Below are positions 10,363 through 51,209 of a DNA stretch of 64,000 bases, in pieces. The position numbers were made by a program, and so were the translations under genes. The number at the start of each line of letters is the position of its first letter. Positions within the stretch are counted from its first letter, which is position 1. A model generated the notes under the pieces. The model did not search any database. It was not told where the DNA came from and saw nothing but the letters and a program-made list of their open reading frames with translations. The stretch is from Parcubacteria group bacterium Gr01-1014_29 (lineage in GTDB: Bacteria > Patescibacteriota > Minisyncoccia > Ryanbacterales > 2-02-FULL-48-12): NCBI GenBank assembly GCA_007376195.1, contig VMFT01000002.1, positions 1,273 through 65,272 of the forward strand, given 5' to 3'.

Positions 10363-10563
10363 TTAAAACCGTGAGGCACGGCTGTGTCTCGAGAATCTAT
10401 TACTTCGTCCACTGCTACCTCTGCTAGAAAAACCGCGTCCAAAAGCAGGTCGGGTACGCGTGCGCGGGCGCATTACTTTTTGAAGCGCCAGGAGCTCTTC
10501 CGAGACGCTCTCGGGGTACAGATGCTTGACAGCAGTGGCAAGTAAGGTATATGATAAAATCAT
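10363..10563 (-). pseudogene. duplicated 3' fragment of the DEAD-box helicase gene (C-terminal tail copy)
   Basis: Encodes ...ESVSEELLALQKVMRPR..., identical over 17 aa (about 50 nt) to the C-terminus of the helicase at 11773..12993, then diverges. Confidence 0.45.
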
Positions 10564-10584
10564 ATTATAATATCATATAAATAT

Positions 10585-10806
10585 ATGACTACCTTATCTG
10601 TGCCGGTGCCGCCAAAGTTGGAGGAATTGGTAAATTCTTTGGTGAAAAGAGGGTATGGGGCAAATAAAGCGGATGTTGTGCGAAAAGCCCTCGAGCTTCT
10701 TGCGGAGGAAGAAGCCATTAAGACCGTGCGGGAAGCGCAACAGGAAGTGCGCGATGGTAAAGTGCTCAAAGGAGACATTCGCAGGCTTATCAAGAACATG
10801 CTGTAA
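10585..10806 (+). CDS. ribbon-helix-helix type antitoxin (ParD/CopG-like)
   Basis: 73-aa protein with a predicted N-terminal beta-strand plus helices; stop overlaps the toxin ATG (TAATG). Confidence 0.5.
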   Translation: MTTLSVPVPPKLEELVNSLVKRGYGANKADVVRKALELLAEEEAIKTVREAQQEVRDGKVLKGDIRRLIKNML

Positions 10807-11069
10807 TGATCGGATTGCAATACGCGCCAAAGTTCTTGAAGCAGTTGAGTAAGCTGGATCCTGCTCTCCAAAAAGAGGCGTTTGCGAAGATTGAGCTCTT
10901 CAAGGACAAGAAAAACCATCAATCCCTAGAAGTACATAAGTTGCAGGGAAGGCTTTCCGGCAGCTATGCATTCTCGGTCAATTACAAAGATCGGATTGTT
11001 TTTGATTATGTTTCAAAAAGCGAGGCTGTTTTGCTTGCTATCGGGGATCATGATGTTTATAAAAAGTAA
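10806..11069 (+). CDS. RelE/ParE-family toxin (mRNA interferase)
   Basis: ...LQGRLSGSYAFSVNYKDRIVFDYVS...AVLLAIGDHDVYK shows RelE/ParE hallmarks. Confidence 0.6.
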   Translation: MIGLQYAPKFLKQLSKLDPALQKEAFAKIELFKDKKNHQSLEVHKLQGRLSGSYAFSVNYKDRIVFDYVSKSEAVLLAIGDHDVYKK

Positions 11070-11180
11070 TGAACTAGATTGTTTATCAGTGTGTATAAAC
11101 ACGCTTTTCTGTTGCATCTCGGCTGTTTTTATGGTATCTTCTTTGTGAACTACACAGAATAAATTTATAGGAGGTGCATA

Positions 11181-11672
11181 ATGGTAGTCATTGTTGTCAA
11201 AGATAATCGTCCGTTGAAGTTCGCGGTTGCTGTTGTAATTAGAAGTATAGATCGGAAAATGCTTTTTGTTGTACAACGGCCTCCCGACGATGATGAGTTT
11301 CCCGACATGTGGGGATTGCCTTCCGCAAGTGCGAAGCGTGGTGAGCTTCCCGAAGAAGTTGTGCGGCGCATTGGACGCGAAAAGCTCAATGTAGAACTCA
11401 CGCCGAATTGGTTTCTTGGCGTAAAATATGCCGAGCGAACTAATTACAAACTCATCTTGATGGATATGTGCGCTGACATTGCGGAAGGTGCTCTGAATGT
11501 CCGAATTGCAAACGTTCGCAACCGCGCAGTACCTGGTACAAAGTATGTTGACTGGCGGTGGGTGGAGGGTCTGGACATTCTCAAAGAAGCCGCGTCGCGC
11601 GGTTCCATCTGTTCGCAGATTCTTCTGGAGTATGAAGGTGTGGACTACCCAGACAAGAGGCACTTTAATTGA
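11181..11672 (+). CDS. Nudix-like hydrolase (degenerate Nudix box)
   Basis: GLPSASAKRGELPEEVVRRIGREKLNV approximates the Nudix box Gx5Ex7REuxEExGu. Confidence 0.35.
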   Translation: MVVIVVKDNRPLKFAVAVVIRSIDRKMLFVVQRPPDDDEFPDMWGLPSASAKRGELPEEVVRRIGREKLNVELTPNWFLGVKYAERTNYKLILMDMCADIAEGALNVRIANVRNRAVPGTKYVDWRWVEGLDILKEAASRGSICSQILLEYEGVDYPDKRHFN

Positions 11673-11772
11673 TATCGTTTCCAGCCCCCACGCTCATTTG
11701 AGTGTCGGGGCGTTTTCTTTTTCTACGCTCTTGCCGGTTGGCGGATTTTTTCGTGTTGTATGCTATGTCAAA

Positions 11773-12993
11773 TTATCTATGAGGGTTGGTTCGGGGCGCG
11801 CGGTTGGTTCTTACGAATGGGCGCGGGCCGCCGCTTCGAGGTGAGAAACTGCGCTGTGTCGGCCAGCTGGCGGATTGCTGATGTCTGCTTGTGCGCCCGC
11901 GCGGACGGGGGCGCATTACTTTTTGAAGCGCCAGGAGCTCTTCCGAGACGCTCTCGTGGCGTTTTACCAGAAGTGTTTTACGGATAAGGCGCTCAATAGC
12001 GCGAATTTCTCCTTGCTGGTCGGGGGTGGCCAGAGATATTGCCTTACCCTCCCTACCCGCGCGGCCCGTGCGCCCGATGCGGTGCACGTAGTCTTCAGAG
12101 CTTTCGGGTATGTCAAAATTTACCACTAACTCAATATTGACGACGTTGATGCCACGCGCGGCTATGTCAGTAGCCACAAGCACGCGATATTTTCCTTTTT
12201 TGAACCCTTCCAGCGCTTCACGGCGCTGGCCCATTGTTTTGTTTGAGTGTATTTCTACAGCACGTTCCCCAATGTCGCGGAGGTGCCGCGCGAGCTTTGA
12301 TGCGCCATGTTTTGTGCGCGAGAATATCAGAATGGTGCCCGCATGTTCCCGGAGAAGCGTTTCAAGGAGGGAAATTTTTGACTCCTTTTTTACTATATAT
12401 ATTTCCTGCTCTGTCGCTTCTATGGTGGTGCCCGCGGGCGCGACCTCAACTCGTACAGGGAGCGTCATGTGACGTGTGGCAATGGATACGATGGTATCCG
12501 GCATGGTTGCAGAAAACAGCATGGTTTGGCGCTTGCCTGGCTCCGGCAAGGCTTCAAAGATGATGCGTATTTGCGGAGCAAAGCCCATGTCAAACATGCG
12601 GTCGGCTTCGTCAAGAACCAGAATGGTTATGTTGCCAAGCGAGACAGTTTTTTCTCCAAGATGGTCAATGAGACGTCCGGGAGTCGCGATAATAATGTGA
12701 GGGCCTTGCCGCAGCTGGTCAATTTGACGCGGCATGGATTCGCCTCCTATGAGTACTGCGGTGCGAAGTCCCAGCGGATGCCCGATTTTCTGAAGCATAT
12801 CGTTTACTTGCAAGGCAAGTTCGCGCGTGGGGAGCACCACGAGCCCGCGTGCGCGGTGCTCTGCGATGCGTTGAATCATAGGTATGCCGAAGGCAAGGGT
12901 CTTGCCGGTGCCGGTCTGCGCGATGCCGATAATGTCTTTTCCTTCGATTGCCGCAGGAATAGATTGGTGTTGAATGGGGGTTTCTTGTGTCAT
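11773..12993 (-). CDS. DEAD-box ATP-dependent RNA helicase with RG-rich C-terminal tail
   Basis: Motifs AQTGTGKT, PTRELA, DEAD, SAT and HRIGRTGRAG. Start taken at the Met preceding TQETPIQ; the ORF track extends to 13077. Confidence 0.75.
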   Translation of the reverse strand: MTQETPIQHQSIPAAIEGKDIIGIAQTGTGKTLAFGIPMIQRIAEHRARGLVVLPTRELALQVNDMLQKIGHPLGLRTAVLIGGESMPRQIDQLRQGPHIIIATPGRLIDHLGEKTVSLGNITILVLDEADRMFDMGFAPQIRIIFEALPEPGKRQTMLFSATMPDTIVSIATRHMTLPVRVEVAPAGTTIEATEQEIYIVKKESKISLLETLLREHAGTILIFSRTKHGASKLARHLRDIGERAVEIHSNKTMGQRREALEGFKKGKYRVLVATDIAARGINVVNIELVVNFDIPESSEDYVHRIGRTGRAGREGKAISLATPDQQGEIRAIERLIRKTLLVKRHESVSEELLALQKVMRPRPRGRTSRHQQSASWPTQRSFSPRSGGPRPFVRTNRAPRTNPHR

Positions 12994-13148
12994 ACATGTG
13001 TGACCCGATTTCCTTTCGTGGGTCACACATCTTGCGAGAGATGACACAAATAAGGCGCGAGTCTTTAATAAAAGCAATTATACCACATTCATATATATTT
13101 TGCAAGGACTGATGGCTGGGGCCTTTTTGATATACTATAAATGGTACC

Positions 13149-17504: not shown

Positions 17505-17600
17505 GTAGAATACGTCTACTGGTAAAAATCCCCCTTCATCCCCCTTTTCCAAAGGGGGACATACGCTCCTCCCTTTGGAAAAGGGAGGTTAGGAGGGATT
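17505..17600. repeat. paired hairpin modules A (tcccccttt..aaaggggga) and B (ctcctcccttt..aaagggagg-ttaggaggga) upstream of nrdA
   Basis: Read directly; the same two modules recur at 29520-29625 in the opposite order. Confidence 0.5.
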
Positions 17601-17661
17601 TCGTAATTCAAAGTAGTTTTCTATCAACTAATGTCCAGCCGCAGCAAGATATGTTGCGGGT

Positions 17662-20586
17662 GTGTTGTCAGGCACCATGGAAAACATACAGAAAATAAAG
17701 AAACGCAACGGAGAGGTCGTAGAATTTGACCAGCATAAAATAACACTCGCGGTGCAAAATGCTTTTTTTGCAACGCGCGGGACGTTAGACGAGGCGCGTC
17801 TGCGCGCTATTACCGAGAACGTCGTTATTGAGCTTGTTGCTCTGTTTCCGTCCACCGAGCAGATTCCATCCGTTGAGAATGTGCAGGATATCGTGGAGCG
17901 CAAGATCATGGAGCAGGGCTTTTTTGATGTCGCAAAAGCCTATATTCTCTATCGGTATGATCATGCCAAAGAGCGGGAGGAGAAGAAAAAGGATACCTTG
18001 CGGCGCATTCAGGAAAATCAGATTACGATTATAAAACGGTCAGGCAAACCGGAGCCGTTTTCAATGGAAAAAATTCGTACATCGCTTCGCTATGCCGCGC
18101 GCGGCTGCCAAGACGCCGTGGATATAGAGAGGCTTGCGGAACAATGCCGTAACGAGGTGTATGACAACATGCCCACATCTGAAATTGCGCGCTCATTGGT
18201 GTTGGTTGCTCGATCGTTCATTGAGCTTGATCCGGCCTATTCAAAAGTGGCTGCCCGGCTGATGCTGGTAAAGCTCTACAAAGATATAATCGGCTCGAAG
18301 ATTGACTACGCCCGGCTCGATCAGCAGTACCGCGAGGCGTTTGTGCAGGTACTGCAACATGGCGTGGGCGTGGGAAAACTGGACAAGCGCATGCTGGAGT
18401 TTGATCTTGAAAAACTGGCTCTCCGCCTCAAGCCCGAACGCGACGATTTGTTGCGGTATCTGGGTGTGCAGCGGCTGTATGATCAATATTTTTTGAAAAA
18501 CGCGGAAACTCGGGATGTATTGGAAGCGCCGCAGATGTTTTGGATGCGCGTGGCGATGGGTCTGGCGCTGGGCGAGCAGGAAAAAACCAAATGGGCGGAA
18601 GAATTTTACGAAATACTCTCGATGCTCCGGTATGTGCCGTCGAGCCCCACGCTGTATCACGCGGGCATGGTGAAGGCGCAGTTGAGTTCGTGTTTTCTTT
18701 CCACGGTGGGGGACGACTTGCATGCGATTTTCAAATCATACGGCGACAGCGCGCATTTGTTGAAATGGGCAGGCGGCATGGGTATGGACTGGACTCCCGT
18801 GCGCGCCACTGGCGCTTTGGTGCGGAGCACCGGCGTGGAGTCGCAAGGCGTGGTGCCGTTTTTGAAAATAATGAACGACGTTACGATTTCCATAAACCGC
18901 AGCGGCAGGAAGCGGGGCGCGACGTGCGTGTATCTTGAAACTTGGCACTACGACATTGAGGACTTTCTGGAGCTTCGCAAGAATACGGGCGACGAGCGCC
19001 GCCGCACGCATGATATGAACACGGCCAACTGGATACCCGATCTTTTTATGAAGCGCGTGCGCGAAGACGGGGATTGGACACTTTTTTCATCGGAAGAAGT
19101 GCCGGATCTCCACGAAACATACGGCAGAAAATTCGAAGAGCGCTATATGGCATACGAACGGAAGGCCGATGAGGGGGGTATCCACATGTGGAAGCGTATG
19201 AAAGCGCGGGAGCTTTGGAAGAAAATGCTTGCCATGCTGTTTGAAACGGGTCATCCGTGGATTACATTTAAGGATCCATCCAACATCCGTTCGCCCCAAG
19301 ATCATGTGGGTGTTGTGCACAATTCAAACTTATGCACGGAGATAACGCTTAACAACTCCGCCGAAGAGACCGCGGTCTGCAATCTCGGCTGGATCAATTT
19401 CGCTGAGCACGTAACGGACGGTGTGTTTGACGAAGCAAAAGCGGCCCAAACCGTACGGCTTGGCATGCGCATGCTCGACAACGTTGTTGATTTGAACTAC
19501 TACCCCACAGTCGAAACCAAGCGGTCTAATATGCGCCATCGCCCGGTAGGATTTGGCATGGGCGGATTTCACGATGCGCTCTACCGGATGAATATACAAT
19601 TTGATTCGGAGGCGGCGGTTGAGTTTGCCGACCGCAGCATGGAGGTTATTGCGTATCACGCGTATCTTGCGTCTTCCCAGCTTGCGGCTGAGCGTAGCGC
19701 CTACGAGACATTCAAGGGTTCCAAATGGGATCGCGGCATCCTGCCGCAGGATACCTTGCAGCTTCTGGAGGAAGAGCGCGGCGAGCATATTCCCGTCTCG
19801 CGCCGAAGCTCGCTTGACTGGAGCGTGGTGCGCGACGCTATCAAACAATATGGCATGCGCAACTCCAACTGTCTTGCGGTGGCTCCCACAGCGTCCACAT
19901 CCAACGTGGTGGGGGCGATTCCTTCTATTGAACCGATTTACAAAAACATCTATGTAAAGTCGAATATGTCCGGGGACTTTACCGTGGTAAACGAGTACCT
20001 GGTGGAAGATTTAAAAAAGATCGGGTTGTGGAGCAGGGAGATGTTGAATAAAATTAAGTTTAAGGACGGCAATATTTCCAGCATCGCGGGCATTCCAGAT
20101 CATCTCAAAGAAAAATACAAAGAAGTGTTTCAGATAAATCCCAAGTGGCTTATTCGCGCGGCGGCTCATCGCGGCAAGTGGATAGATCAGAGCCAATCGC
20201 TGAACATTTTCTTTGCGGGTTCTTCCGGAAAGCAGATTTCTGAGATTTACCAGTATGCGTGGGAAATGGGCTTAAAGACTACGTATTATTTGCGTACACT
20301 TGCGGTCTCGCAGGTAGAAAAGTCTACCGTGAGCGCGGTAGAATACGGGTCCACCCACGTTCGTGTGCAAGAGACGGTTGCGGCCGCAACTCTCGCAGAG
20401 GGAATTGTGTCGCAGCAGGCGCAAGGTATGGATGCGGAGCGTATGGCAGTTAGCGAAAGGCCGGTATACTTGACACCCCACATCGAAGCGGCTGATATTC
20501 CGGAGTCGCCAGAGAGCAATCCCCTATCTGTACCACAGCCGAAACTGTGCAGTATCGAGGATCCAAGCTGTGAATCATGCCAGTAA
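17662..20586 (+). CDS. nrdA: ribonucleoside-diphosphate reductase alpha subunit, class I, with N-terminal ATP-cone
   Basis: ATP-cone at the N-terminus, NLCTEI, GGFHDALY, and a C-terminal CxxC tail (CESCQ). Start may be the Met at 17677. Confidence 0.8.
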   Translation: MLSGTMENIQKIKKRNGEVVEFDQHKITLAVQNAFFATRGTLDEARLRAITENVVIELVALFPSTEQIPSVENVQDIVERKIMEQGFFDVAKAYILYRYDHAKEREEKKKDTLRRIQENQITIIKRSGKPEPFSMEKIRTSLRYAARGCQDAVDIERLAEQCRNEVYDNMPTSEIARSLVLVARSFIELDPAYSKVAARLMLVKLYKDIIGSKIDYARLDQQYREAFVQVLQHGVGVGKLDKRMLEFDLEKLALRLKPERDDLLRYLGVQRLYDQYFLKNAETRDVLEAPQMFWMRVAMGLALGEQEKTKWAEEFYEILSMLRYVPSSPTLYHAGMVKAQLSSCFLSTVGDDLHAIFKSYGDSAHLLKWAGGMGMDWTPVRATGALVRSTGVESQGVVPFLKIMNDVTISINRSGRKRGATCVYLETWHYDIEDFLELRKNTGDERRRTHDMNTANWIPDLFMKRVREDGDWTLFSSEEVPDLHETYGRKFEERYMAYERKADEGGIHMWKRMKARELWKKMLAMLFETGHPWITFKDPSNIRSPQDHVGVVHNSNLCTEITLNNSAEETAVCNLGWINFAEHVTDGVFDEAKAAQTVRLGMRMLDNVVDLNYYPTVETKRSNMRHRPVGFGMGGFHDALYRMNIQFDSEAAVEFADRSMEVIAYHAYLASSQLAAERSAYETFKGSKWDRGILPQDTLQLLEEERGEHIPVSRRSSLDWSVVRDAIKQYGMRNSNCLAVAPTASTSNVVGAIPSIEPIYKNIYVKSNMSGDFTVVNEYLVEDLKKIGLWSREMLNKIKFKDGNISSIAGIPDHLKEKYKEVFQINPKWLIRAAAHRGKWIDQSQSLNIFFAGSSGKQISEIYQYAWEMGLKTTYYLRTLAVSQVEKSTVSAVEYGSTHVRVQETVAAATLAEGIVSQQAQGMDAERMAVSERPVYLTPHIEAADIPESPESNPLSVPQPKLCSIEDPSCESCQ

Positions 20587-20587
20587 A

Positions 20588-20676
20588 TTAGGCGCTAGGC
20601 ACTAGGCGTTAGGAACTAAGAAAGAAAAATATCTTTCTAGCATCCAGAGCCTAAAGCCTAAAGCCTAAAGCCTAAT
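20588..20676. repeat. intergenic palindromic element, ctaggc/cctaaag arrayed-heptamer type
   Basis: Left arm ttaggcgctaggcactaggcgttagg, right arm cctaaagcctaaagcctaaagcctaa, around an AT-rich centre that has its own inner palindrome. Confidence 0.5.
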
Positions 20677-20678
20677 CT

Positions 20679-21716
20679 ATGCCTATTCAAAAAACAACAG
20701 AACGCGTGAACAGTAATAAACGCCGCATCATCAACGGAGAAGACGCGGATGTAATGCAGTTATACCCCATTAAGCACAAATTTGCGTGGGATGCGTATAT
20801 AATAGGGAACGCCAACCATTGGTTGCCAACCGAAGTCAACATGCAGCGCGATGTTGAGCAGTGGAAGTCTCCGTATGTTCTTACGGCGGACGAGCGTCTT
20901 GCGCTGGAAACCGTGCTTGGGTTTTTCACCACAGCCGATTCTCTCGCGGCAAACAACCTGGTGCTTGCCTCCTATAAGCACATCACTTCGCCCGAATGCC
21001 GGCTGTATTTATTGCGTCAGGCCTATGAAGAGGCAATCCATACGCATGCGTATCAATACATTGTAGAAAGCCTGGGTATGGATGAAGGGCGCCTGTTCAA
21101 CATGTACCGCGAGCATGATGCAATTTACAACAAAGACGCGTTTATCCTTACGTTTAACGAAGGCATTTTTGACCCTCACTTCAAAACCGGCACATTCGCG
21201 TCGGATCAGAAGTTTCTTGAGAACATGGTTGTGTTTTCAATTATTCTTGAAGGCATCTTTTTTTACAGCGCGTTTGCCGTTATGTTCGGGTTCCAGCGGC
21301 AAAATAAAATGGTTGGCGCGGCCGAGGAGATCCAATACATCATGCGCGATGAGTCTATGCACCTTAACTTCGGGATTAACGTTATAAATACTATAAAACA
21401 GGAGCAGCCGGAGTTGTGGACAAAGGATTTCCAGGAGCATGTCATGGAGCTTGTGAAAACAGCTGTTGTGCTTGAATCCACATTCGCGGCAAGCGTGTTT
21501 CCACACGGCATTTTCGGCATGAACGCCGATGGATTTCGTCAGTATATACAACATATTGCGGACCGCCGGCTGCAGCGGATAGGTCTTCTGGCAGCATATG
21601 GCAGTCAGAACCCATTTCCGTGGATGTCCGAAGCCATTGACCTTTCCAAGGAAAAAAATTTCTTTGAGACGCGCGTTATTGAATATCAGACCGGTGGCGC
21701 GTTAGAATGGGAATAG
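20679..21716 (+). CDS. nrdB: ribonucleoside-diphosphate reductase beta subunit
   Basis: Ferritin-like di-iron motifs (EAIHTHAY, ESMHLNF) and a C-terminal tail; directly follows nrdA. Confidence 0.75.
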   Translation: MPIQKTTERVNSNKRRIINGEDADVMQLYPIKHKFAWDAYIIGNANHWLPTEVNMQRDVEQWKSPYVLTADERLALETVLGFFTTADSLAANNLVLASYKHITSPECRLYLLRQAYEEAIHTHAYQYIVESLGMDEGRLFNMYREHDAIYNKDAFILTFNEGIFDPHFKTGTFASDQKFLENMVVFSIILEGIFFYSAFAVMFGFQRQNKMVGAAEEIQYIMRDESMHLNFGINVINTIKQEQPELWTKDFQEHVMELVKTAVVLESTFAASVFPHGIFGMNADGFRQYIQHIADRRLQRIGLLAAYGSQNPFPWMSEAIDLSKEKNFFETRVIEYQTGGALEWE

Positions 21717-21790
21717 GAATCAACGAATAGCGAATCAGAAACGAATTTACGAATGAGGTGAATTAAGCTAAAAATAAGTCCTATTCGTTG
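21717..21790. repeat. acgaat-type TIR element (cargo-less copy) related to the GxxExxY cassette ends
   Basis: atcaacgaatagcgaatcagaaacgaatttacgaatg ... cctattcgttgat. The ends resemble the 30-bp TIRs at 38552 and 38984. Confidence 0.4.
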
Positions 21791-27201: not shown

Positions 27202-27564
27202 ATGGAAACAGGAATATATGAAAATGAACTGTTTGAATCGTATGTGCTGTTACCCGAGCAAGTTACCTCTTTGGCAGCAGCAGATTCTCCCGAACATCGG
27301 TTCATGCGGGTCGTGTTGGAAGATGCACTCAAGGGATATCAGAGATATAAAGACAAGAAATCTCTGAGAGCGCGGCGGTTGTTTCAGGAAGATGAGAAGT
27401 GGTTTCGGTCTGCTGACGTGTCGTGGCCGTTTTCTTTTGAAAATATCTGCATGGCGCTGGGTCTAGATGCCCAAGCAGTGAGGAAAGAGCTTTTCAGAAA
27501 GGATTCCAAAGTGAAAGTGCCAATGATTAACTTGATCACCTATCACCGCACAAAAATTGGATAG
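27202..27564 (+). CDS. hypothetical protein
   Basis: ORF only. Confidence 0.3.
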   Translation: METGIYENELFESYVLLPEQVTSLAAADSPEHRFMRVVLEDALKGYQRYKDKKSLRARRLFQEDEKWFRSADVSWPFSFENICMALGLDAQAVRKELFRKDSKVKVPMINLITYHRTKIG

Positions 27565-27628
27565 GTTTCACATGCGCTGCCAAATTGTGGCGGTGCTTTT
27601 TTGTTCCGTTTTCTGGTACAATACACTC

Positions 27629-28852
27629 ATGACTCAAGACAAAAAATTTCCGGATGGGTTTTTGTGGGGGGCGGCGACGTCAGCTCATCAAGTTGAAGGA
27701 GACAACCGGAACGATTGGACGGAGTGGGAAAAGAAAAACGCCGAGCGGCTTTCAAAAACAAATGGCGCGAAATATCCTCCGGAAAATTATATTTCCGATC
27801 AGGCGTGTGATCACTACAGTCGCTACGAGGAAGATTTTGATATCGCAAAGTCTCTTGGCCACAATGCGCACCGGTTTTCCATTGAGTGGTCTCGCGTGGA
27901 GCCGGAAGAGGGAAAGTTTGATGAGAAAGAAATTGAACACTACCGCGACGTAATCCGCGCGTTACGCGAACGGGGCATGGAGCCGTTTGTAACATTGTGG
28001 CATTGGACAAACCCTATTTGGTTTGCTGAAGCGGGCGGTTGGGAGAATAAAAAAGCGACGGAATATTTTGTGCGCTATGTGGAAAAAGTTGTTGATGTTC
28101 TCGGCGACGTGAAATTTTGGATAACCATGAATGAGCAAGAGGCGTTTGCGCGCCATGGCTACTTTACGAAAGATCGCCCGCCCGCCACCGGCACTATTTT
28201 TACGGCATATCATGTGCTTAAAAAACTGGTTCATGCTCATGAGCAGGCGTATCAAGTTATAAAAAATATACGACCAAAAAGCCTTGTGGGGTTTTCGGAA
28301 AGCCGTGTTTTTTTTGAACCGTATAACAGGTTGCCCCACAATCTCCTTGCGACAAAACTTATTGCGTGGTGGAGGAACAACGCTTTTTTTGATCAGTTTG
28401 TCAAACATTCTGATTTTATTGGCCAGCAGTATTATTTTCACTCAAGGGTACGATTGAATCCGTTTGTGTCCCACTGGGGCTTTCAGTATAACGAAAATAA
28501 GAAAGTAAGCGACATGGGGTGGGAATTGTATCCGGAAGGACTATACCATGTGCTCACGGACTTAACAAAATATAAAAAACCTATTTATATCACAGAGAAC
28601 GGGCTTGCCGATGCACGGGATGAACACCGGGCGTGGTTTATCCGGGAGCATGTTCGTTGGATGAAAAAAGCAATGGATGAAGGGGCTGATGTGCGTGGAT
28701 ATTTTTATTGGTCACTATTGGACAATTTTGAGTGGGACAAAGGATTCTGGCCGCGATTCGGACTCGTGGAGGTGAATTACCAAACGCTCGAGCGAACAAT
28801 TCGCCCGAGCGCGTGGGAGTATAAGAAAATAATTATGGATCATGAAGCGTGA
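27629..28852 (+). CDS. glycoside hydrolase family 1 (beta-glucosidase-like)
   Basis: FLWGAATSAHQVEG, TMNEQ and ITENG catalytic motifs. The ORF track starts at 27557 with a hydrophobic N-terminal extension. Confidence 0.75.
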   Translation: MTQDKKFPDGFLWGAATSAHQVEGDNRNDWTEWEKKNAERLSKTNGAKYPPENYISDQACDHYSRYEEDFDIAKSLGHNAHRFSIEWSRVEPEEGKFDEKEIEHYRDVIRALRERGMEPFVTLWHWTNPIWFAEAGGWENKKATEYFVRYVEKVVDVLGDVKFWITMNEQEAFARHGYFTKDRPPATGTIFTAYHVLKKLVHAHEQAYQVIKNIRPKSLVGFSESRVFFEPYNRLPHNLLATKLIAWWRNNAFFDQFVKHSDFIGQQYYFHSRVRLNPFVSHWGFQYNENKKVSDMGWELYPEGLYHVLTDLTKYKKPIYITENGLADARDEHRAWFIREHVRWMKKAMDEGADVRGYFYWSLLDNFEWDKGFWPRFGLVEVNYQTLERTIRPSAWEYKKIIMDHEA

Positions 28853-29013
28853 ATCATGAAGCATAAGATATTAAATTCCTCACTTTTATGTTCCATGTTT
28901 CAAGTTTTATGTTATATGCTTTATGAACTGGTTTCTCATATCACTTCTTGCACAATGGGTTACCCCCTGCGAACTCATTTGCTTTTCAAGCGTACATATT
29001 TTATAATACATAC

Positions 29014-29226
29014 ATGACTGTGGTTGAGCAAAAAATATCATTACTGGAAAAAGAAGTACAACAACTTCGCTCGTTTATTATTGGTATCGCAGGAAAAGAT
29101 CCGGAAGGCGACTATAAGCCGGAGTTTGTGGATGATATTTTTAAAGCGCGCAGTGAGAAATCTGCCTATACATTTCATGGAAAATCTTCATTTCTTACCG
29201 AACTGCACCGCCGCAAGGCATCATGA
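29014..29226 (+). CDS. putative antitoxin (coiled-coil, 70 aa) of a RelE/ParE module
   Basis: Stop overlaps the toxin ATG (ATGA). Confidence 0.4.
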   Translation: MTVVEQKISLLEKEVQQLRSFIIGIAGKDPEGDYKPEFVDDIFKARSEKSAYTFHGKSSFLTELHRRKAS

Positions 29227-29486
29227 TCCGCGTTCTTACAACAGAACGTTTTCTTGATGGAGCCGCATATTTACCAAAACAGCAACAGCAGAAACTTGCA
29301 AATCTTCTTATAACATTGGAAGAAAATCCCTTTCATCCAAAACTTCGCACAAAATTATTGCGCGGTACGCTCACCGGCCTTTATGCATTTCGTATAACGC
29401 GCGACTGGCGTGTGATCTTTCAATTTCAAGATACACACACCATACTACTCCTCCGCACCGCAAACCGTAAAGACATCTACCGATAA
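29223..29486 (+). CDS. RelE/ParE-family toxin
   Basis: ...LTGLYAFRITRDWRVIFQFQDTHTILLLRTANRKDIYR matches the RelE/ParE consensus. Confidence 0.55.
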   Translation: MIRVLTTERFLDGAAYLPKQQQQKLANLLITLEENPFHPKLRTKLLRGTLTGLYAFRITRDWRVIFQFQDTHTILLLRTANRKDIYR

Positions 29487-29519
29487 ATAGATTTCCTCTC
29501 ACATTCTACTCCACAAAAT

Positions 29520-29625
29520 AACTACTCACTCCTCCCTTTGAAAAAGGGAGGTTGGGAGGGATTTTACAAGATGTATTTTTTAAAAATCCCCCTTATTCCC
29601 CCTTTTACAAAGGGGGAATTTCCCA
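29520..29625. repeat. paired hairpin modules B then A (same family as 17505-17600)
   Basis: ctcctccctttgaaaaagggaggttgggagggatt ... aaaatcccccttattcccccttttacaaaggggga. Confidence 0.5.
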
Positions 29626-29667
29626 AGGTGTGAGCAGTTACTCCACAAACTATTGAACTTTGTCCTC

Positions 29668-29699
29668 GGACTCTGCATTTTAATGCAGGGTCCTTTTTT
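29668..29699 (+). terminator. rho-independent terminator
   Basis: ggactctgcattttaatgcagggtcc followed by tttttt. Confidence 0.45.
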
Positions 29700-29831
29700 G
29701 TACGCTAGAATAAAAATGGTAGTAGGTGAATATACGGGAGAAAAGTTGATATGTTTGGTTATTTAGAAAGCGCCTTTTAATTGAAAGGCGTTTTTTCTTT
29801 TGATGAGCTATACTAGAAGTGTATTTTAAAC

Positions 29832-29856
29832 TAACGCCTAAAGCCTAGCGCCTAAT
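29832..29856. repeat. solo arm of the ctaggc/cctaaag palindromic element family
   Basis: ctaacgcctaaagcctagcgcctaa immediately upstream of the ATG at 29863. Confidence 0.35.
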
Positions 29857-29862
29857 TTTTTT

Positions 29863-31737
29863 ATGAACTGGTTTCTTATATCACTTCTCGCACAGGTTGT
29901 TCTTGGCACCGCATCGGTGGTTGATAAGCTGTTCCTCAAAAAATCCTATCCAAATCCGGTAGGGTACACGTTTTGGATAGGAATATTAGGTTTAGTGTCG
30001 GTGTTTCTTTTGCCGTTCGGGTTTGAATGGGCAGAATCTGCAGTAGTGGTGCGTGCGTTGTGGGGAGGCGCTGTGTTTATGGCCGCACTTCTGCTTTTTT
30101 ATTGGGCATTGTATTACGGAGAAGCATCAGGGGCAGTGGTTGCCATTGGCGGTCTTTCGCCGGTAGCAACATTATTTTTTTCTTTTGTGCTCATGGGCGG
30201 TTCGCTTGCATCTTACGAAATTGCAAGCTTTTTTCTTTTGGTAATTGGCAGTTTTCTTCTGTCGTTTACCGCAGAGCGGACCGTGCGCCTGCGCGTGGCA
30301 GGGCTCGTTGCGGCAAGCGCCCTCTTATTTGGGTATTCCAATATTCTTGCCAAGCAAGTGTTTGACGCTACCTCATTTTTCACCGGATTTTTCTGGCTAA
30401 AAATCGGCGGAGTTATTGCGGTGTTCCTACTGTTTTTTTACGCGCCGTGGCGAAAGGCGATTCTCAATCCGGGAGAGAAAGACGAGTTTCATAATCGTCT
30501 TGGCTATTTTACCAACCGAGTGTACGCAGGCGTCGGTTCTATACTAATATATTACGCTATCGCATTAGGCGTGCCGCCGCTGGTGGATGCCATGCAGGCA
30601 GTACGGTTTTTATTTGTGTTTCTCGGCGGTTGGCTGGTGCTTCGTGAGACGTTTCGCGGAAAAATTCTTGCGCTAAAAATCGCCGCGTTTATAATAGTGT
30701 CTCTTGGGGTGTTGTTTCTCGGCGTGGGCACCTATCTCTCACACACAGCGCCAGATCCGAACCGGTCTATCGCGTGGGGAGTTACATTTTCAGAAAAATT
30801 CGCACGGGAATTTTTTGTGCCAAATGACAGTGCGCCCGGTCGGATGACCGGGTCGGATGAGTATTGGAAAAGTAACTATGACGCGATTCTTGATGATCTT
30901 GGCGTGCGGCATCTCCGATTGGTTGCTTACTGGGATCTTCTGGAGCCAACGGAAGGCGTATTTGATTTTTCAGGGCTTGACTATCAAATGCGCCGCGCGG
31001 AGAAAGTCGGGGCGGATGTTATCTTGGTGGTAGGAAAGAAAGTGCCGCGGTGGCCGGAGTGCCACACCCCGCACTGGGTGCGGGAATTTTCAATTTCCAA
31101 TTTTCAATTTCCAAACAAACAAGACGAAAAACTACTGGAGTTTGTTGAAGTAGTTGTAAAAAGATACAACGATTCTCCGGTACTTCGTTATTGGCAGGTG
31201 GAAAATGAACCATTTTTGCCGTTTGGAGAGGGAGCGTGCGCTCTTTCCGGGAAAGAGCTTTTGGAAAACGAAATAGAACTTGTGAAAAAACTAGACCCGG
31301 CGCATCCAGTTGTCATCACGGATTCAGGAGAAATTGGGGCGTGGGTGCGTGCCGCGAAACGCGGGGATGTATTTGGCACCACCATGTATAGAAGAGTACA
31401 CAACGACCGTCTTGGCAACTTCGAATATCCTATTGGTCCGTGGTTTTTCCGCGTGAAAGAAAAAATAGTCCGCTTTTTGCTTCAAGATTACGAGAAAAAA
31501 TTTATAGTGGTTGAACTTGGCATGGAGCCGTGGTTGCCCCAACAGCTCTATGAGACAACGCCGGAGGAACAAATGCAGGTTTTTGATTTTGAGTTTTTCA
31601 AAGATTCTGTGCGATTTGCCAAAGATACGGGGTTTGATGAGTACTATCTGTGGGGTGCTGAATGGTGGTATTGGTTAAAAACAAAACACAACGATCCCCG
31701 GTTTTGGGATGAGACGGGTGAGTTGTTTCCCAACTAA
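29863..31737 (+). CDS. fusion protein: N-terminal about 10-TM EamA/DMT-like membrane domain plus C-terminal TIM-barrel glycoside-hydrolase-like domain
   Basis: Hydrophobic N-terminal 300 aa; the C-terminal part has WQVENEP (GH5/GH42-like NEP catalytic motif). Confidence 0.5.
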   Translation: MNWFLISLLAQVVLGTASVVDKLFLKKSYPNPVGYTFWIGILGLVSVFLLPFGFEWAESAVVVRALWGGAVFMAALLLFYWALYYGEASGAVVAIGGLSPVATLFFSFVLMGGSLASYEIASFFLLVIGSFLLSFTAERTVRLRVAGLVAASALLFGYSNILAKQVFDATSFFTGFFWLKIGGVIAVFLLFFYAPWRKAILNPGEKDEFHNRLGYFTNRVYAGVGSILIYYAIALGVPPLVDAMQAVRFLFVFLGGWLVLRETFRGKILALKIAAFIIVSLGVLFLGVGTYLSHTAPDPNRSIAWGVTFSEKFAREFFVPNDSAPGRMTGSDEYWKSNYDAILDDLGVRHLRLVAYWDLLEPTEGVFDFSGLDYQMRRAEKVGADVILVVGKKVPRWPECHTPHWVREFSISNFQFPNKQDEKLLEFVEVVVKRYNDSPVLRYWQVENEPFLPFGEGACALSGKELLENEIELVKKLDPAHPVVITDSGEIGAWVRAAKRGDVFGTTMYRRVHNDRLGNFEYPIGPWFFRVKEKIVRFLLQDYEKKFIVVELGMEPWLPQQLYETTPEEQMQVFDFEFFKDSVRFAKDTGFDEYYLWGAEWWYWLKTKHNDPRFWDETGELFPN

Positions 31738-31753: not shown

Positions 31754-32280
31754 CTACCGGTTTTGTGATTTGAAAGAGGAGTGATGCAAGTTATATTCTT
31801 TGAGATAGTTACGGAGTGTCCGCGTGGTCAATTTTGATATCTGAGCCGCTCTGGTCATGTTGCCTTGCGTTCTAAATAAGATCGCAGTAATGTATTGTTT
31901 CCTAGCGTCTGCGAGTGTCGGCAGTACCTCATCATATTTGATGAGCGGCGAAGGTATTTCGATGTGTGATAAAGAGATTTCAACAGGCGGCAAAGGTATT
32001 TCGTGAAGCTGGAAGAAGTCGCTAGCCCCAACAACTTGTTTATCCACTCGCTTTTTGATATATTGCAACTTTGTTGGTGGTGTGCGATTTTTTCTATAAA
32101 ATTTTTGTTAGAAATATAATCATCCACTTGGCTTTTACTTAGTTCCCGAGTAGTAAAAAGAAACATTAAAATCTCATAGTAAACGTGCTCCGCACTTCTT
32201 TTTAGTTTTTTCTCGGATATACTCATAGCTTTCCAGTGAACGGTTGATTGAGAATTGATTATCTTGGTGTTGGAACTCAA
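31754..32280 (-). pseudogene. AT-rich gene for a Fis-type HTH protein, apparently frameshifted (two overlapping ORFs)
   Basis: ORF 31754..32068 carries a C-terminal HTH (MTRAAQISKLTTRTLRNYLKEY). ORF 31855..32280 overlaps it in another frame; T-runs sit at 32088-32108. Confidence 0.3.
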
Positions 32281-32333: not shown

Positions 32334-32408
32334 TGGTGTCCTCGGCAGGAATTGAACCTGCATCAAAGGCTTAGGACGCCCCTATTCTGTCCGTTGAACT
32401 ACGAGGAC
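32334..32408 (-). tRNA. tRNA-Arg (anticodon CCT)
   Basis: Minus strand: GTCCTCG acceptor, D-loop with GG, anticodon loop gTCCTaa, T-arm GCAGG-TTCAATT-CCTGC, 3' CGAGGAC-A-CCA. Manual fold; the anticodon stem has two G-U pairs. Confidence 0.65.
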
Positions 32409-33028
32409 ATAATTAACTGATTAAGTCTTTTTATAATGCAAAATATTTCTTTTAATAACAATCCTCCTTTTTTAACTCTGACTCTACACATGCCATATTT
32501 AAGTTTACCTTTCTTTTTACCTTTTAAAACATTCACGCTCGTCTCTTTCCCTAGCTTGATTCCGGTTACTTCAGACCAAAATTTAAGGCAGTTTTTCTTG
32601 TTGAGATCTTCATATATTCTTACTGAAATTTTAAGGTCGCTGTTCTGAATTCCGAAAGTAGTTCGTAAGGTATAAAGAAATAATCTAATTAAATCCGGAT
32701 CAGTATTGGAAAGTCCAAAATCTTTTTTTGATCCCTCAGCCCAATATAAAGAAGTTGCTATAAGGGCTAAATCTTTTCGTGTCAAACAATCCATTAATTG
32801 TTCGGCTTTTCCCTTAGCTGTATCCCAATGTCGCTCAGAAATGATTTTACTTGCATTACGGCGGTTAAGCCATCTTTGATAATGTTTAGGGAGTATGTTA
32901 ATATTTTTTATGTATCTCGATGCGGTTGATTTCGAAATTTCGCACATGCGGCTTATTTCGGGTACACTATAACCCCGAGCTCTTAAACTTCGGATTTCGG
33001 AGATTTTATCATCTTGGATAGGTAGCAT
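32399..33028 (-). CDS. AT-rich protein with N-terminal resolvase-type HTH and LAGLIDADG-like (LYWAEGS) homing-endonuclease-like domain
   Basis: GYSVPEISRMCEISKSTASRYIKN HTH; IATSLYWAEGSKK resembles a single-motif LAGLIDADG. GC content is far below its surroundings; the stop overlaps the tRNA-Arg 5' end by about 10 nt. Confidence 0.4.
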   Translation of the reverse strand: MLPIQDDKISEIRSLRARGYSVPEISRMCEISKSTASRYIKNINILPKHYQRWLNRRNASKIISERHWDTAKGKAEQLMDCLTRKDLALIATSLYWAEGSKKDFGLSNTDPDLIRLFLYTLRTTFGIQNSDLKISVRIYEDLNKKNCLKFWSEVTGIKLGKETSVNVLKGKKKGKLKYGMCRVRVKKGGLLLKEIFCIIKRLNQLIMSS

Positions 33029-34725: not shown

Positions 34726-34983
34726 GATTAGTTGCCGCCAAAGAAAAACTTGTTCCCGTTTTATCTGGCAAAATGAAGTTACAAAACGCAATCCCGCCTT
34801 CTAAAATTTTAAATAAGTGGCGGGAACATTGTCATCCTCCTTCGCCAAGGCTACGGAAGGACAAGTCGGTGCGGCTCCGCCGCCTTTCGGATTTTTCGCG
34901 GGGGGTTCCTCGCCCTTCGACAAGCTCACTATTTTAAGAATACCGGACACTTGTTTTATTCCTCTTATTTGCTATGCTGTAAG

Positions 34984-35218
34984 CATGAAAAAACATAAAG
35001 AAATAATCTATCAATACGAGGTTCTTTTTGACCCAAATGGGGTGGGATATACCGTTACGGTACCCAAACTCCCCGGACTTGTTACTGAAGGGAACAATTT
35101 AAAAGACGCGCGGGAAATGGCAAAAGATGCTATTCGGTGTTACCTCGGAGCAATCTTAAAAGAAAAAGCTATTGCTTTCGGAACCACACGACATGAGAGG
35201 ATCAGAGTAGCAGTATAA
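34984..35218 (+). CDS. hicB: HicB-family antitoxin
   Basis: YEVLFDPNGVGYTVTVPKLPGLVTEGNNLKDAREMAKDAI matches the HicB/UPF0150 consensus. Confidence 0.55.
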
Positions 35219-37992: not shown

Positions 37993-38067
37993 GCTCTAGA
38001 GGGTTAGGCGCTAGGCTTTAGGAAAAGATATAGAAATGTCTTCTAGAGCCTAAGGCCTAGTGCCTAA
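37991..38067. repeat. intergenic palindromic element (ctaggc type)
   Basis: ...gggttaggcgctaggctttagg ... cctaaggcctagtgcctaa, with nested ctctagag arms. Confidence 0.5.
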
Positions 38068-38079: not shown

Positions 38080-38550
38080 ATGAGACGAAAACCAGCAACA
38101 AAACGAGAAATACCGGCAGATTACAAATGGGACTCCCCGCGAGTTGCCAAGTTTGTAAATATAATCATGTGGGACGGCAAGAAATCAGTTGCCGAACACG
38201 TTGTATATGATGCGTTGGATATCGTTGCAAAAAAAGCGAGCGTGGAAAATCCTGTCGTGGTTTTTGACCTTGCGCTCGACAATGTTGCGCCGCTTGTGGA
38301 AGTGCGTTCGCGCCGCGTAGGAGGTGCAAACTATCAAGTTCCGGTAGAGGTGCGCGGGCCGCGCCGCATGACGCTTGCGATGCGCTGGCTTGCAGCCGCC
38401 GCCCGTTCGCGCAAAGGCGCGCCTATGGCCGAACGCCTCGCGGAAGAGTTGTTTCTGGCATCCAAAAACGAAGGCGTTGCAATAAAGAAGAAACTAGACA
38501 CGCATCGCATGGCGGACGCCAACAAGGCATTTGCTCATTTTGCGTGGTAG
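38080..38550 (+). CDS. rpsG: 30S ribosomal protein S7
   Basis: S7 family sequence; canonical str-operon position. Confidence 0.9.
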
Positions 38551-38551
38551 A

Positions 38552-39013
38552 AAATCAACGAATAACGAATTAAGTACGAATAAACGAATGAAGGAGTTGA
38601 AAAGAAGTGATTTGGTATATCCCGAATTAAGTTATCGGATTATAGGTTGTGCGTTTGAAGTTTATAACATTTTAGGTCAGGGTCGCCAGGAAAAGCATTA
38701 CCAGAAAGCGTTGGTGGAAGAATTCAAAAACATAGGGCTTGCAATAATTGAACAGGTTTACTATCCTATTTCATTCAAAAATAAAAATATCGGAAAAGAC
38801 TTTCTTGATTTCTTGGTTAATAGTCAGGTAGTTGTAGAAATCAAAAAAGGTGATAGATACTCCAAACAACACATTGATCAAGTATTAGAATATCTTAAAG
38901 TTAGCGACAAACAACTTGCTATCTTAATTAATTTTGGATCGCAGGGTGTCCACTTCAAAAGAATTATAAATTTTAATTCGTAAATTCGTACTTAATTCGT
39001 TATTCGTTGATTT
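38552..39013 (+). mobile_element. cassette with perfect 30-bp terminal inverted repeats (aaatcaacgaataacgaattaagtacgaat) carrying a GxxExxY gene, inserted exactly between rpsG and fusA
   Basis: Left TIR 38552-38581 and right TIR 38984-39013 are exact reverse complements; the fusA ATG is at 39014. Confidence 0.5.
38588..38983 (+). CDS. GxxExxY-family protein (PD-(D/E)XK nuclease superfamily)
   Basis: YPELSYRIIGCAFEVYNILGQG contains the G-x-x-E-x-x-Y motif; AT-rich gene. Confidence 0.55.
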   Translation: MKELKRSDLVYPELSYRIIGCAFEVYNILGQGRQEKHYQKALVEEFKNIGLAIIEQVYYPISFKNKNIGKDFLDFLVNSQVVVEIKKGDRYSKQHIDQVLEYLKVSDKQLAILINFGSQGVHFKRIINFNS

Positions 39014-41287: not shown

Positions 41288-42220
41288 ATGACTATTCGTC
41301 AAAAACTGGAAATTATCCAAAAAATGCTGGGATTAACACAGACAAAGCTCGCCGAAAAATTCGGCGTGTCTTTTGCCGCTTTTAACAGCTGGTGGACCGA
41401 AAAATCAAAGCCCCGGCCTAAAATGCAGGCCGCCATAGACGAGCTGTTTTTGGAAGTGACCGGACAAAAAATAATATCCACTGATCAGCTTACAGCAAAA
41501 AAGCAAGCTCTCCGGCAGAAATCGGGAGAACACAAAAATATTGTGACAGAAATTCTGGATAATCCGGATATCCGCGATCAGTTTATTTTAAAGCTCACCT
41601 ATCATAGCAACAGTATTGAGGGTAGTACGCTTACCGAGCCGGATACAGCGGCGATTCTTTTTGACAATGCGGCTCTGCCCAATAAAAGTTTGACCGAACA
41701 ACTGGAAGCGAAGAATCATCAGACTGCTTTGAATTATTTGTTTGATTATGTCGCCAAAAAAGAAAAAGTTGATGAGGCACTGGTACTTAAACTTCATAGT
41801 ATTCTCATGAATGGTATCCGTCCGGATGCCGGTGTATATCGCAATCATGCTGTCAGAATCACCGGCGTTAATTTGCCAACTGCGAATTATATGAGTGTTC
41901 CTAAATTGATGCCAGAGGTAATGGCTCGAGTCGCTCTAAAAAACACAGACATACTTGCAGAGTCCGCCGGTGTTCATAGCAAATTCGAACAAATTCATCC
42001 TTTTTCCGATGGTAACGGCCGTATTGGACGATTGCTTATGAGCACAATGTTACTTAGTGCAAATTTTGCTCCTGCAATAATTCGTCAGGAACAAAAACGG
42101 CTGTATTACACATATCTTTATAAAGCTCAAACCAAAGATGACCACAGCCAACTAGAGGATTTTCTCTGTGAAGCTGTCAGGGACGGGTTCAAGATTTTGG
42201 AACGCACAGACGCGAGATAA
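41288..42220 (+). CDS. Fic-family protein (AMPylase-type) with N-terminal XRE-type HTH
   Basis: Fic motif HPFSDGNGRIGR; N-terminal LGLTQTKLAEKFGVSFAAFNSW HTH. Confidence 0.7.
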   Translation: MTIRQKLEIIQKMLGLTQTKLAEKFGVSFAAFNSWWTEKSKPRPKMQAAIDELFLEVTGQKIISTDQLTAKKQALRQKSGEHKNIVTEILDNPDIRDQFILKLTYHSNSIEGSTLTEPDTAAILFDNAALPNKSLTEQLEAKNHQTALNYLFDYVAKKEKVDEALVLKLHSILMNGIRPDAGVYRNHAVRITGVNLPTANYMSVPKLMPEVMARVALKNTDILAESAGVHSKFEQIHPFSDGNGRIGRLLMSTMLLSANFAPAIIRQEQKRLYYTYLYKAQTKDDHSQLEDFLCEAVRDGFKILERTDAR

Positions 42221-45290: not shown

Positions 45291-45360
45291 TAGGCACTAG
45301 GCTCTAGGCATTAGGGAAAAAATATATGTTCCCAGCTAGTGCCTAAGGCCTAATGCCTAA
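45291..45360. repeat. intergenic palindromic element (ctaggc type)
   Basis: taggcactaggctctaggcattagg ... cctaaggcctaatgcctaa. Confidence 0.5.
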
Positions 45361-49542: not shown

Positions 49543-49628
49543 TTAGGCTTTAGGCGCTAGGCATTAGAACACTGAATGAAAACTATGTGTCTAGTCCTAG
49601 AGCCTAAGGACTACTATCTAGCGCCTAC
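49543..49628. repeat. intergenic palindromic element (ctaggc type)
   Basis: ttaggctttaggcgctaggcattag ... ctagtcctagagcctaagg ... ctagcgcctac. Confidence 0.5.
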
Positions 49629-50007: not shown

Positions 50008-50085
50008 CTAGGCATTAGGCTCTAGGCACTAGGAAAAGAAATACAAAAGCATTTTTTCCTAAAGCCTAACGCCTAGAGCCTAGAG
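50008..50085. repeat. intergenic palindromic element (ctaggc type)
   Basis: ctaggcattaggctctaggcactagg ... cctaaagcctaacgcctagagcctagag. Confidence 0.5.
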
Positions 50086-50947: not shown

Positions 50948-51012
50948 GGCACTAGGCTCTAGGCCTTAGGATTCTAAGTCCTAGAGCCTAGTGCCTAGGT
51001 TCCTAGCGCCTA
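50942..51012. repeat. intergenic palindromic element (ctaggc type), overlapping the rplE stop
   Basis: cactagggcactaggctctaggccttagg ... cctagagcctagtgcctagg ... cctagcgcctag. Confidence 0.5.
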
Positions 51013-51203: not shown

Positions 51204-51209
51204 GTAGTA

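Follow-up and report, generated by a model that had tools for sequence, protein, structure and literature searches.

The window analyzed here is a 64-kb stretch of a metagenome-assembled genome, that of the ultra-small groundwater organism Parcubacteria group bacterium Gr01-1014_29, and the locus in question is a predicted toxin-antitoxin cassette that stands between two copies of the first codons of its downstream gene. On the plus strand, to which all features of this locus belong, a GH1 glycoside hydrolase gene (27557–28852; PF00232, 6e-86; likely start ATG 27629) is followed by a native spacer of 27% GC (28853–28919) and then by copy 1 of a 35-nt direct repeat (28920–28954). A block of 905 bp (28955–29859; 940 bp when one repeat copy is included) leads to copy 2 (29860–29894), with which begins an intact gene of 624 amino acids (29863–31737) for a protein with an EamA-like membrane domain and a glycoside-hydrolase (GH) domain (PF00892, PF02449), referred to as the membrane-GH gene. 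The locus is of an ordinary kind, an acquired toxin-antitoxin cassette, with a clear and recurrent insertion signature.

Insertion of a cassette at the start of the membrane-GH gene

The two repeat copies, TTTATGAACTGGTTTCTCATATCACTTCTTGCACA upstream and TTTATGAACTGGTTTCTTATATCACTTCTCGCACA downstream, are identical at 33 of 35 positions, lie 940 nt apart from start to start, and have 17 and 11 nt as their longest exact shared runs. The 35-mer is matched at just two places in the window when up to three mismatches are allowed, nowhere in 100 dinucleotide shuffles of the window, and has no dyad symmetry; gapped local alignment of wider flanks ends the homology at 35 nt. Both copies are in frame and specify codons 1–11, MNWFLISLLAQ (ATG at 28923 in copy 1 and at 29863 in copy 2). 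Over these codons, with the eleventh (CAA/CAG) counted, there are three differences, all of them synonymous and at third positions. The 624-amino-acid gene truly starts at copy 2, as eleven homologs begin with M[NS]W[FL][FLS][IVA][AS][LF][LFI]AQ, and the protein is full length relative to 120 homologs. Copy 1 opens an open reading frame (ORF) of 27 amino acids (28923–29006) that loses all homology past codon 11; it is therefore an isolated stump, the stranded original start of the gene, and not a piece of a paralog.

An earlier note, made from the letters of the window, had described this repeat and had taken the second copy for the real start of the gene at 29863–31737. The window pattern search reproduces its count of 33 matches in 35, and the N termini of the homologs agree with its choice of start. 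Its coordinates are correct for copy 2 and one base too high for copy 1, which it placed at 28921–28955. The note had also considered that the upstream copy might belong to an intact paralogous gene, and that copy is the isolated fragment just described.

As the source is a metagenome-assembled genome, the structure might be an assembly chimera formed at the repeat. Contigs from three other samples, produced by different assemblers, are 99.8–100% identical to the window over either junction or over both, and the structure is therefore not an assembly artifact. Furthermore, because the repeat has two mismatches, exact words shared by its copies do not exceed 17 nt, far under assembly k-mers. 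A chimera is thus scarcely to be credited. All the other contigs that carry the identical toxin hold the same filled allele. A strain variant in another sample (L003 position 894, window 29894) replaces A by T at the last base of copy 2, which is the exact edge of the 35-nt repeat, and changes Gln11 to Leu; two more variants, both G to A, lie at 30043 and 30049.

The GH1 and membrane-GH genes are separated by only about 3–100 bp in some 50 related Patescibacteria genomes, and this toxin-antitoxin pair is missing from all of 80 related membrane-GH loci. Two relatives (L178 and L179) retain the order HtrA, 120-amino-acid ORF, GH1 and membrane-GH intact, with a 3-nt gap between the last two, and the gap is at most 42 bp in the closest relative (L045, 72% amino acid identity). 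At these empty sites (L178, L179, L045, L177 and about 50 others), a single gene start stands beside GH1. Relatives (L045 and L004) have a native spacer to which the sequence before copy 1 can be aligned; the sequence before copy 2 shows no such alignment. Because GH1 and membrane-GH are adjacent in about 50 genomes, the block 28955–29859 is an insertion, and it falls at codon 11/12 of the membrane-GH gene. The membrane-GH gene survives the insertion because its start is present twice; precise excision between the repeats in silico restores an identical membrane-GH protein. The empty sites that the earlier note had proposed to seek in related strains are present in other species. The comparison is one between species (at most 72% amino acid identity), whereas insertion with long target duplication, the known class discussed below, was originally defined within species.

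The inserted block differs in composition from its surroundings (40% GC vs. 47% for the window), and the toxin-antitoxin pair provides its only genes. A promoter, whose end is 6 nt short of the antitoxin ATG, can be read from the sequence at 28979–29007 (TTGCTT, 17 nt, TATAAT); it is under the −35 threshold of the scan tool, and homologous cassettes have TTGACA-type promoters in the equivalent position. The antitoxin-like gene (29014–29226, 70 amino acids) precedes the toxin gene, with which it shares 4 nt (ATGA). Neither Pfam nor NCBIfam returned a match for it, and its homologs match PF10884 (DUF2683) only weakly; antitoxin and toxin are kept together in 76 of 80 metagenome loci. The toxin of 87 amino acids (29223–29486) belongs to the RelE/StbE-ParE superfamily, with 28.2 bits to PF05016 (cut-off 23) and 28.9 bits to TIGR02385, RelE_StbE (cut-off 27.9), and the profile of its family matches YoeB structures (5e-5) and also RelK. 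Residues R82 and Y86 are invariant among 35 family members; they would be the C-terminal catalytic Arg and Tyr of RelE-type mRNA interferases, and we take them to be the counterparts of R81 and Y87 in RelE. The GC content at third codon positions (GC3) is 0.34–0.36 in the two genes (0.36 in the toxin gene), compared with 0.48 in their neighbors.

The nearest relative of the cassette (78% identity in the toxin protein, 76% in DNA) has homology confined to 29013–29485. In that other genome it stands upstream of a trigger-factor-like gene, with an apparent truncated tRNA gene, for which ARAGORN makes no call, on its far side. The limited homology indicates that the mobile unit consists of approximately the promoter, the antitoxin and the toxin. 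The cassette is a self-contained operon with its own promoter, predicted to encode a type II toxin-antitoxin system of RelE/StbE type, and, as judged by sequence comparison, it is horizontally acquired. One could instead suppose that the cassette is ancestral and was lost in the relatives, or that the repeat is an unrelated local tandem duplication. Precise loss through the repeats would be easy, and a difference of this kind is seen between two other loci (L085 and L089, below). However, the cassette is missing from about 50 genomes in many Patescibacteria lineages, its GC3 is foreign and its nearest relative sits in another context, and the doubled gene start would still require an insertion-type event. 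We regard both variants of this explanation as very improbable.

Within the block, the operon is accompanied by some 370 bp that hold hairpins and terminators, and the region 29487–29862 has a fold z-score of −5.1. A composite hairpin element resembling miniature inverted-repeat transposable elements (MITEs) occupies 29507–29652; its modules B (29529–29564) and A (29581–29617) are framed by a 9–10-nt inverted repeat and by 14-nt direct repeats (TACTCCACAAA[A/C]TA). Both modules recur at 17523–17601 in circularly permuted order, with 92–94% identity between copies, near a ribonucleotide reductase gene (17662–20586). Rfam returned only sub-threshold, miRNA-like noise for the hairpin modules. The terminator scan places two intrinsic-terminator-like sites at 29668–29693 and 29765–29796 (annotated as 29668–29700 and 29765–29802), and the right arm alone of a GCCTAA-type palindrome lies at 29830–29855, directly before repeat copy 2. 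The antitoxin, the RelE/ParE toxin, the B and A hairpins and the two terminators that the earlier note had listed are thus all located between the copies.

Palindromes of the GCCTAA type are built of (C/T)TAGGCn heptamers and their complement and span whole same-strand intergenic spacers, from stop codon to next start codon. Copies were observed at 20584–20675, 38000–38067, 45293–45360, 49546–49620, 50011–50083, 50948–50998 and 53662–53733, besides the half copy at 29830–29855. Another intergenic repeat family, of ACGAAT/ATTCGT units, occurs at 21707–21754, 38542–38589 and 51197–51244, and in inverted orientation at 38976–39012 and 51262–51298.

The genes around the insertion show some peculiarities of their own. 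The window GH1 protein is 54–59% identical to the GH1 proteins of relatives though HtrA is about 80% identical, and the GH1 gene may itself have been replaced. The membrane-GH protein is without a record in the protein collection, where the toxin and the helicase of the same contig are recorded. Past the membrane-GH gene, a 104-amino-acid ORF with an HTH_8 domain is similar (31% identity, E 0.001) only to the last 51 residues of a 343-amino-acid, sigma-54-activator-type gene product whose gene comes next after membrane-GH in L177, and this ORF is possibly a remnant. Beside it is a helix-turn-helix protein with a LAGLIDADG-like motif, by our own reading, which abuts tRNA-Arg. Minus-strand features beyond the membrane-GH gene lie at 31754–32068, 32334–32408 and 32399–33028.

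Repeat-bounded cassettes at a helicase gene and at other loci

A second cassette, about 18 kb from the first, is found in the same window, in the 3′ part of a gene for a DEAD-box helicase. The distal copy of its repeat (10457–10516, minus strand) continues into a stranded helicase tail with a stop at 10363, and the proximal copy (11900–11959, minus strand) lies inside the intact helicase gene (11773–13077). The repeat measures 60 nt, with 56 of 60 positions identical and 48 nt exact. The 1383-bp block between the copies (10517–11899) contains a promoter (10526–10555; TTGACA-18-TATGAT), a ParD-like antitoxin gene (10585–10806), the gene of a weak RelE/HigB-like toxin that is unrelated to the first toxin (10806–11069), a NUDIX gene (11181–11672) and the helicase tail now in use (11773–11899, minus strand). 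The earlier note had counted this case as a cassette flanked by a duplicated gene end of up to 50 bp. Cassette and repeat are there as described; the repeat is 60 nt rather than 50 bp, and it is not the end of the gene, for the stop codon follows only after 127 nt in the used copy (stop 11773) and after 94 nt in the stranded copy (stop 10363).

Each copy of the helicase repeat runs into an arginine-rich tail of its own. The used tail resembles the tails of orthologs P0220–P0223 (z 5.6–14.8; 0 of 500 shuffles) and the stranded tail resembles that of P0224 (z 4.4; 0 of 500 shuffles), while the used and the stranded tails are not significantly alike (z 0.7). The presence of two different, genuine helicase tails indicates that neither was copied in place from the other and that one was imported with the cassette. 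The donor layout was sought in three helicase ortholog contexts (L174–L176), in which neither a downstream NUDIX gene nor this toxin-antitoxin pair was found. Small toxin-antitoxin-like pairs do occur in two of these contexts (L175:1830–2864 and L176:3234–3787) between the 5′ end of the helicase gene and a DUF2914 gene; in one of them the toxin is of YafQ type and is accompanied by DUF6364 and NADAR genes. The helicase gene therefore looks like a cassette hot spot at both ends.

To place the two cassettes in a wider frame, 80 metagenome loci of one toxin family, that of the first cassette, were scanned for direct repeats bracketing the toxin-antitoxin pair. Redundant loci and loci with either flank shorter than 450 bp were set aside. 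Of the 37 that remained, 6 had a direct repeat of 25 bp or more with a copy no further than 450 bp away on each side, compared with 15 of 1066 control positions (1.4%) on the same contigs. This is an excess of about ten-fold, the control positions not being independent and the statistical models being rough. The recurring pattern claimed in the earlier note is thereby seen beyond this genome. The repeat sequence differs in every surveyed locus, lengths elsewhere range from 30 to 90 nt, and the repeats are of two sorts, namely pieces of neighboring genes and short imperfect palindromes or longer intergenic elements.

Among the neighbor-gene repeats is that of L172, in which a P-loop GTPase gene has its opening ~19 codons doubled (stump MSLKIGIVGLPNVGKSTLF, live gene MLSIGIVGLPNVGKSTLFQ). 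All six nucleotide differences between its copies are synonymous, and stump and live gene differ in their first residues. At L152, a 30-nt repeat that takes in the stop codon of gyrA and a promoter stands on both sides of a bare toxin-antitoxin pair, with gaps of only 5 and 11 nt, and at L139 gene-end remnants lie between three cassettes. The L139 cassettes (1845–3760), as well as those of L119, L120, L140 and L170, are placed between tandem paralogs of a Zn-ribbon-like gene of about 580 amino acids without a Pfam match. The L139 remnants are 133 bp in which the 5′ end of this gene is fused to its 3′ end, and the two paralogs of L119, and likewise those of L120, have identical opening stretches of 90 nt.

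Repeats of the palindrome or intergenic-element sort were found at L085/L109, L166, L097 and L103; cassettes at L085 and L166 are separated by imperfect palindromes of 33–42 nt. In a Nealsonbacteria-like population, a 725-bp cassette with a low-molecular-weight phosphatase gene is precisely present at L085 (2957–3714) and precisely absent at L089 (1227–1260), between two 32-nt copies of TTGTGAAACTTGGCTAAGCCAAGTTTTCCACA and with flanks that are 100% identical; a third copy follows the adjoining toxin-antitoxin pair. This precise difference indicates that repeat-bounded cassettes come and go as whole units in natural populations.

A motif near TTCAAAGAACT was observed after the toxin stop codon or within the flanking repeats at L094, L097, L103, L106, L129, L155 and L161, and it may be a regulatory or recombination site of one clade. 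As a common boundary motif it was rejected, since it is absent near both window cassettes. The window holds further genes of addiction type in the regions 1157–3071, 34817–35218 and 41288–42220: an AbiEii toxin (1788–3071) that a likely AbiEi partner precedes, a HicB-like antitoxin (34817–35218), and a Fic/Doc protein encoded between the EF-G and EF-Tu genes. No flanking repeat of at least 24 nt was found at the AbiEii, HicB-like and Fic/Doc loci in a window-wide scan.

Repeats at both ends of an insert could also be attL and attR sites left by site-specific integration, with an integrase acting in trans on a cis-mobilizable element. Integrative elements often target gene ends and bring a replacement end, and with 64 kb of the genome at hand a recombinase could act from elsewhere. 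However, a scan that took in the insert and 40-odd proteins of the window found no integrase, transposase or recombinase, the 35- and 60-nt repeats of the window have no common core, and the repeats at the other loci all have different sequences. Furthermore, the 35-mer is without dyad symmetry, and its copies share exact runs of no more than 17 and 11 nt. Site-specific integration is accordingly an improbable source of the structure. Several other vehicles and targets were tried and rejected. An insertion sequence, transposon or MITE is at odds with the lack of terminal inverted repeats at the insert ends and with repeats of 35 and 60 nt, which are not a fixed short duplication; an integrase element fails on the missing recombinase and common core, and an integron cassette on boundary repeats that are coding sequence and on the lack of an integrase among the tested genes. 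Viral contigs hold only toxin relatives of 31–36% identity, which removes a phage vehicle, and no tRNA lies at the repeat sites.

Origin of the repeats and maintenance of the cassettes

We lean, at somewhat better than even confidence, toward an import of the cassette on foreign DNA, either by one-sided homologous recombination combined with illegitimate recombination or by Campbell-type integration of a circle. On the first route, the cassette would have arrived on the DNA of a related bacterium, in which it was located just upstream of the donor's copy of the membrane-GH gene. The gene-side junction would then be homologous, and the promoter-side junction would be illegitimate and inside the resident gene, about 24 nt before the −35 box in the first case and 10 nt before it in the second. 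The incoming gene start would take over, and the resident start would be left, together with its native upstream region, as a 35-nt stump. Alternatively, a circle with the cassette and a short gene-start arm could have entered by a single crossover, which would give the same product.

Import is favored over copying in place because the differences between copies are synonymous only. If a gene end had been copied in place and had then decayed neutrally, the probability of finding synonymous changes only would be, on a rough estimate, about 0.04 at the window locus, about 0.007 at L172 and 0.0009 at L139. One repeat copy was probably imported with the cassette, not copied in place. The term duplication, which the earlier note had used, describes the arrangement and is probably wrong for the process, as the two ortholog-type helicase tails and the synonymous-only differences in the membrane-GH start suggest import.

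The rival to be weighed is target duplication in place, by which staggered breaks about 35 nt apart (60 nt at the helicase gene) would be filled in after ligation of foreign DNA. Such a process would fit a repeat that is short, 94% identical and abutting the insert on both sides, repeat lengths that vary from locus to locus, as they do in restriction-modification cases, and the tightly bracketed bare pair at L152 with its promoter-bearing repeat. However, it leaves unexplained why two different genuine helicase tails lie beyond the 60-nt repeat, and the differing N-terminal residues of stump and live gene at L172 as well as the synonymous-only differences also speak against it; nor does the insert encode an enzyme for staggered cuts. 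We consider duplication in place possible rather than probable. At the window locus alone the evidence for import is thin, and staggered-break duplication is there a serious rival.

Recombination is evidently frequent in the membrane-GH family, whose identity profiles are mosaic, and this lends import some further support. An identical membrane-GH protein (P0101) is found in L178 and L179, whose HtrA proteins are 68% and 80% identical to that of the window. Proteins P0101 and P0102 are 93% identical over residues 1–100 and 62–68% identical beyond residue 290, and the window protein is closest to P0101/P0102 in its first 100 residues and to the P0099 group in its C-terminal third.

A number of points weigh against import. 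The mosaic is explained equally well by recombination within the P0101/P0102 lineages, and the synonymous argument is weak at the window locus taken alone, with 35 nt and three differences. The upstream flank of copy 2 matches the 69 nt upstream of the L177 gene no better than shuffles do. Neither a donor nor an empty allele of the same species was found; the exact-pattern scan of Joint Genome Institute (JGI) metagenomes with a 32-nt repeat gave no hits, exact-protein look-ups of the membrane-GH and GH1 proteins returned nothing on record, and the closest membrane-GH homolog is just 72% identical. Uptake of DNA by the host is assumed, with a PilB/T2SSE-type ATPase in the window as its sole support. 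The A and B hairpins and the GCCTAA arm belong to repeat families of the same genome, so that the donor would have to be a close relative or the elements would have arrived later. In experiments on homology-facilitated illegitimate recombination, which is compared below, recipient DNA is reportedly deleted in most cases and no repeat is left.

Whatever the route of entry, recombination between the repeats would permit the loss of the cassette without a scar, and post-segregational killing would select against such loss. This selection may explain why addiction modules occur in the repeat-bounded configuration: an insertion at a gene end would survive only where the end is supplied again, and a precisely losable insert would persist best if its loss kills. 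A more speculative extension, which we hold to be doubtful, is that toxin-antitoxin operons spread in Patescibacteria as recombinase-free "homing" cassettes, each with a short arm of a neighboring gene. The arm would target the same gene by homologous recombination and would replace the end destroyed by the insertion, and the direct repeats would let the cassette excise as a circle and repeat the cycle, with the toxin punishing loss. If true, homing would be a general, host-enzyme-driven life cycle of addiction modules, and would also explain the long target duplications of restriction-modification systems.

The movement of chromosomal toxin-antitoxin modules without transposase or integrase is an old loose end. 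Since the toxin cannot make DNA breaks, the route must rest on host recombination, and some gene ends that pass for duplicated may be imported orthologous ends. Import would turn a descriptive category into a testable mechanism, with either one-sided homology and an illegitimate joint or the integration of a circle. Gene-end repeats that differ only synonymously would offer a bioinformatic handle on recent gene flow in uncultured lineages. For annotation, short ORFs that double gene starts or ends beside toxin-antitoxin pairs should be read as likely insertion scars.

Comparison with known systems

Integron cassettes, including the toxin-antitoxin cassettes of chromosomal superintegrons, are likewise small, often without a promoter or limited to one operon and in many cases toxin-antitoxin pairs, and they too enter and leave as wholes between repeats. 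Unlike in integrons, the repeats of the window are host coding sequence rather than attC-type palindromes, and there is neither an integrase nor an array. The nearest models in mechanism are Campbell-type insertion-duplication and homology-facilitated illegitimate recombination. The former would leave the same product, with an arm on both sides, copies that are potentially chimeric, and reversibility through the repeats. No circular form was observed for such an integration, and an arm of 35 nt is close to the shortest that RecA-dependent exchange can use.

Homology-facilitated illegitimate recombination during natural transformation was reportedly described by de Vries and Wackernagel in 2002 and by Prudhomme and colleagues in the same year. 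The likeness lies in a homologous anchor, here the conserved neighbor gene, combined with an illegitimate joint, here 10–24 nt before the promoter, and in the lack of an enzyme supplied by the element. The window cases differ in that the joint would lie inside the anchor gene and the resident end is kept as a repeat; they are, moreover, known from sequence alone.

The nearest counterpart among described insertions is the "insertion with long target duplication" of restriction-modification gene complexes, in which repeats exceed 30 bp and vary in length and mobility genes are missing (Furuta, Abe & Kobayashi 2010, PMC2853133; Nobusato et al. 2000, Gene 259:99). A start or stop codon is often included in these repeats, which keeps the target whole; most cases come from naturally competent species, the mechanism is unknown, and the authors suspect the involvement of double-strand breaks made by the restriction enzyme (PMC2853133). 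The window cassettes agree with this class in being addiction-type pairs without a mobility gene and, at the membrane-GH gene, with a single copy of the repeat sequence at the empty site. Their repeats exceed 30 bp (35 nt with 33 of 35 identical, and 60 nt with 56 of 60 identical), and their blocks of 905 and 1383 bp are far within the 20 kb allowed for an insert and hold no other mobile-element genes. The cargo differs, being a RelE-type toxin-antitoxin pair in place of restriction-modification genes, with a toxin that is predicted to be an mRNA interferase and no DNA nuclease. Toxins of the RelE type do not break DNA, and the explanation by restriction breaks is therefore not transferable. 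A further difference is the evidence here that one copy of the repeat may be the imported end of an orthologous gene, and the host belongs to Patescibacteria, of the candidate phyla radiation (CPR). The literature searched contained no report of a long-target-duplication event for a type II toxin-antitoxin system or for CPR bacteria, which is not proof of absence. Taken together, the window locus, the helicase case and the survey suggest that the signature of long target duplication also marks RelE-type cassettes in ultra-small CPR bacteria, and thus add a new cargo and a new phylum to a class that is known but has been little studied.

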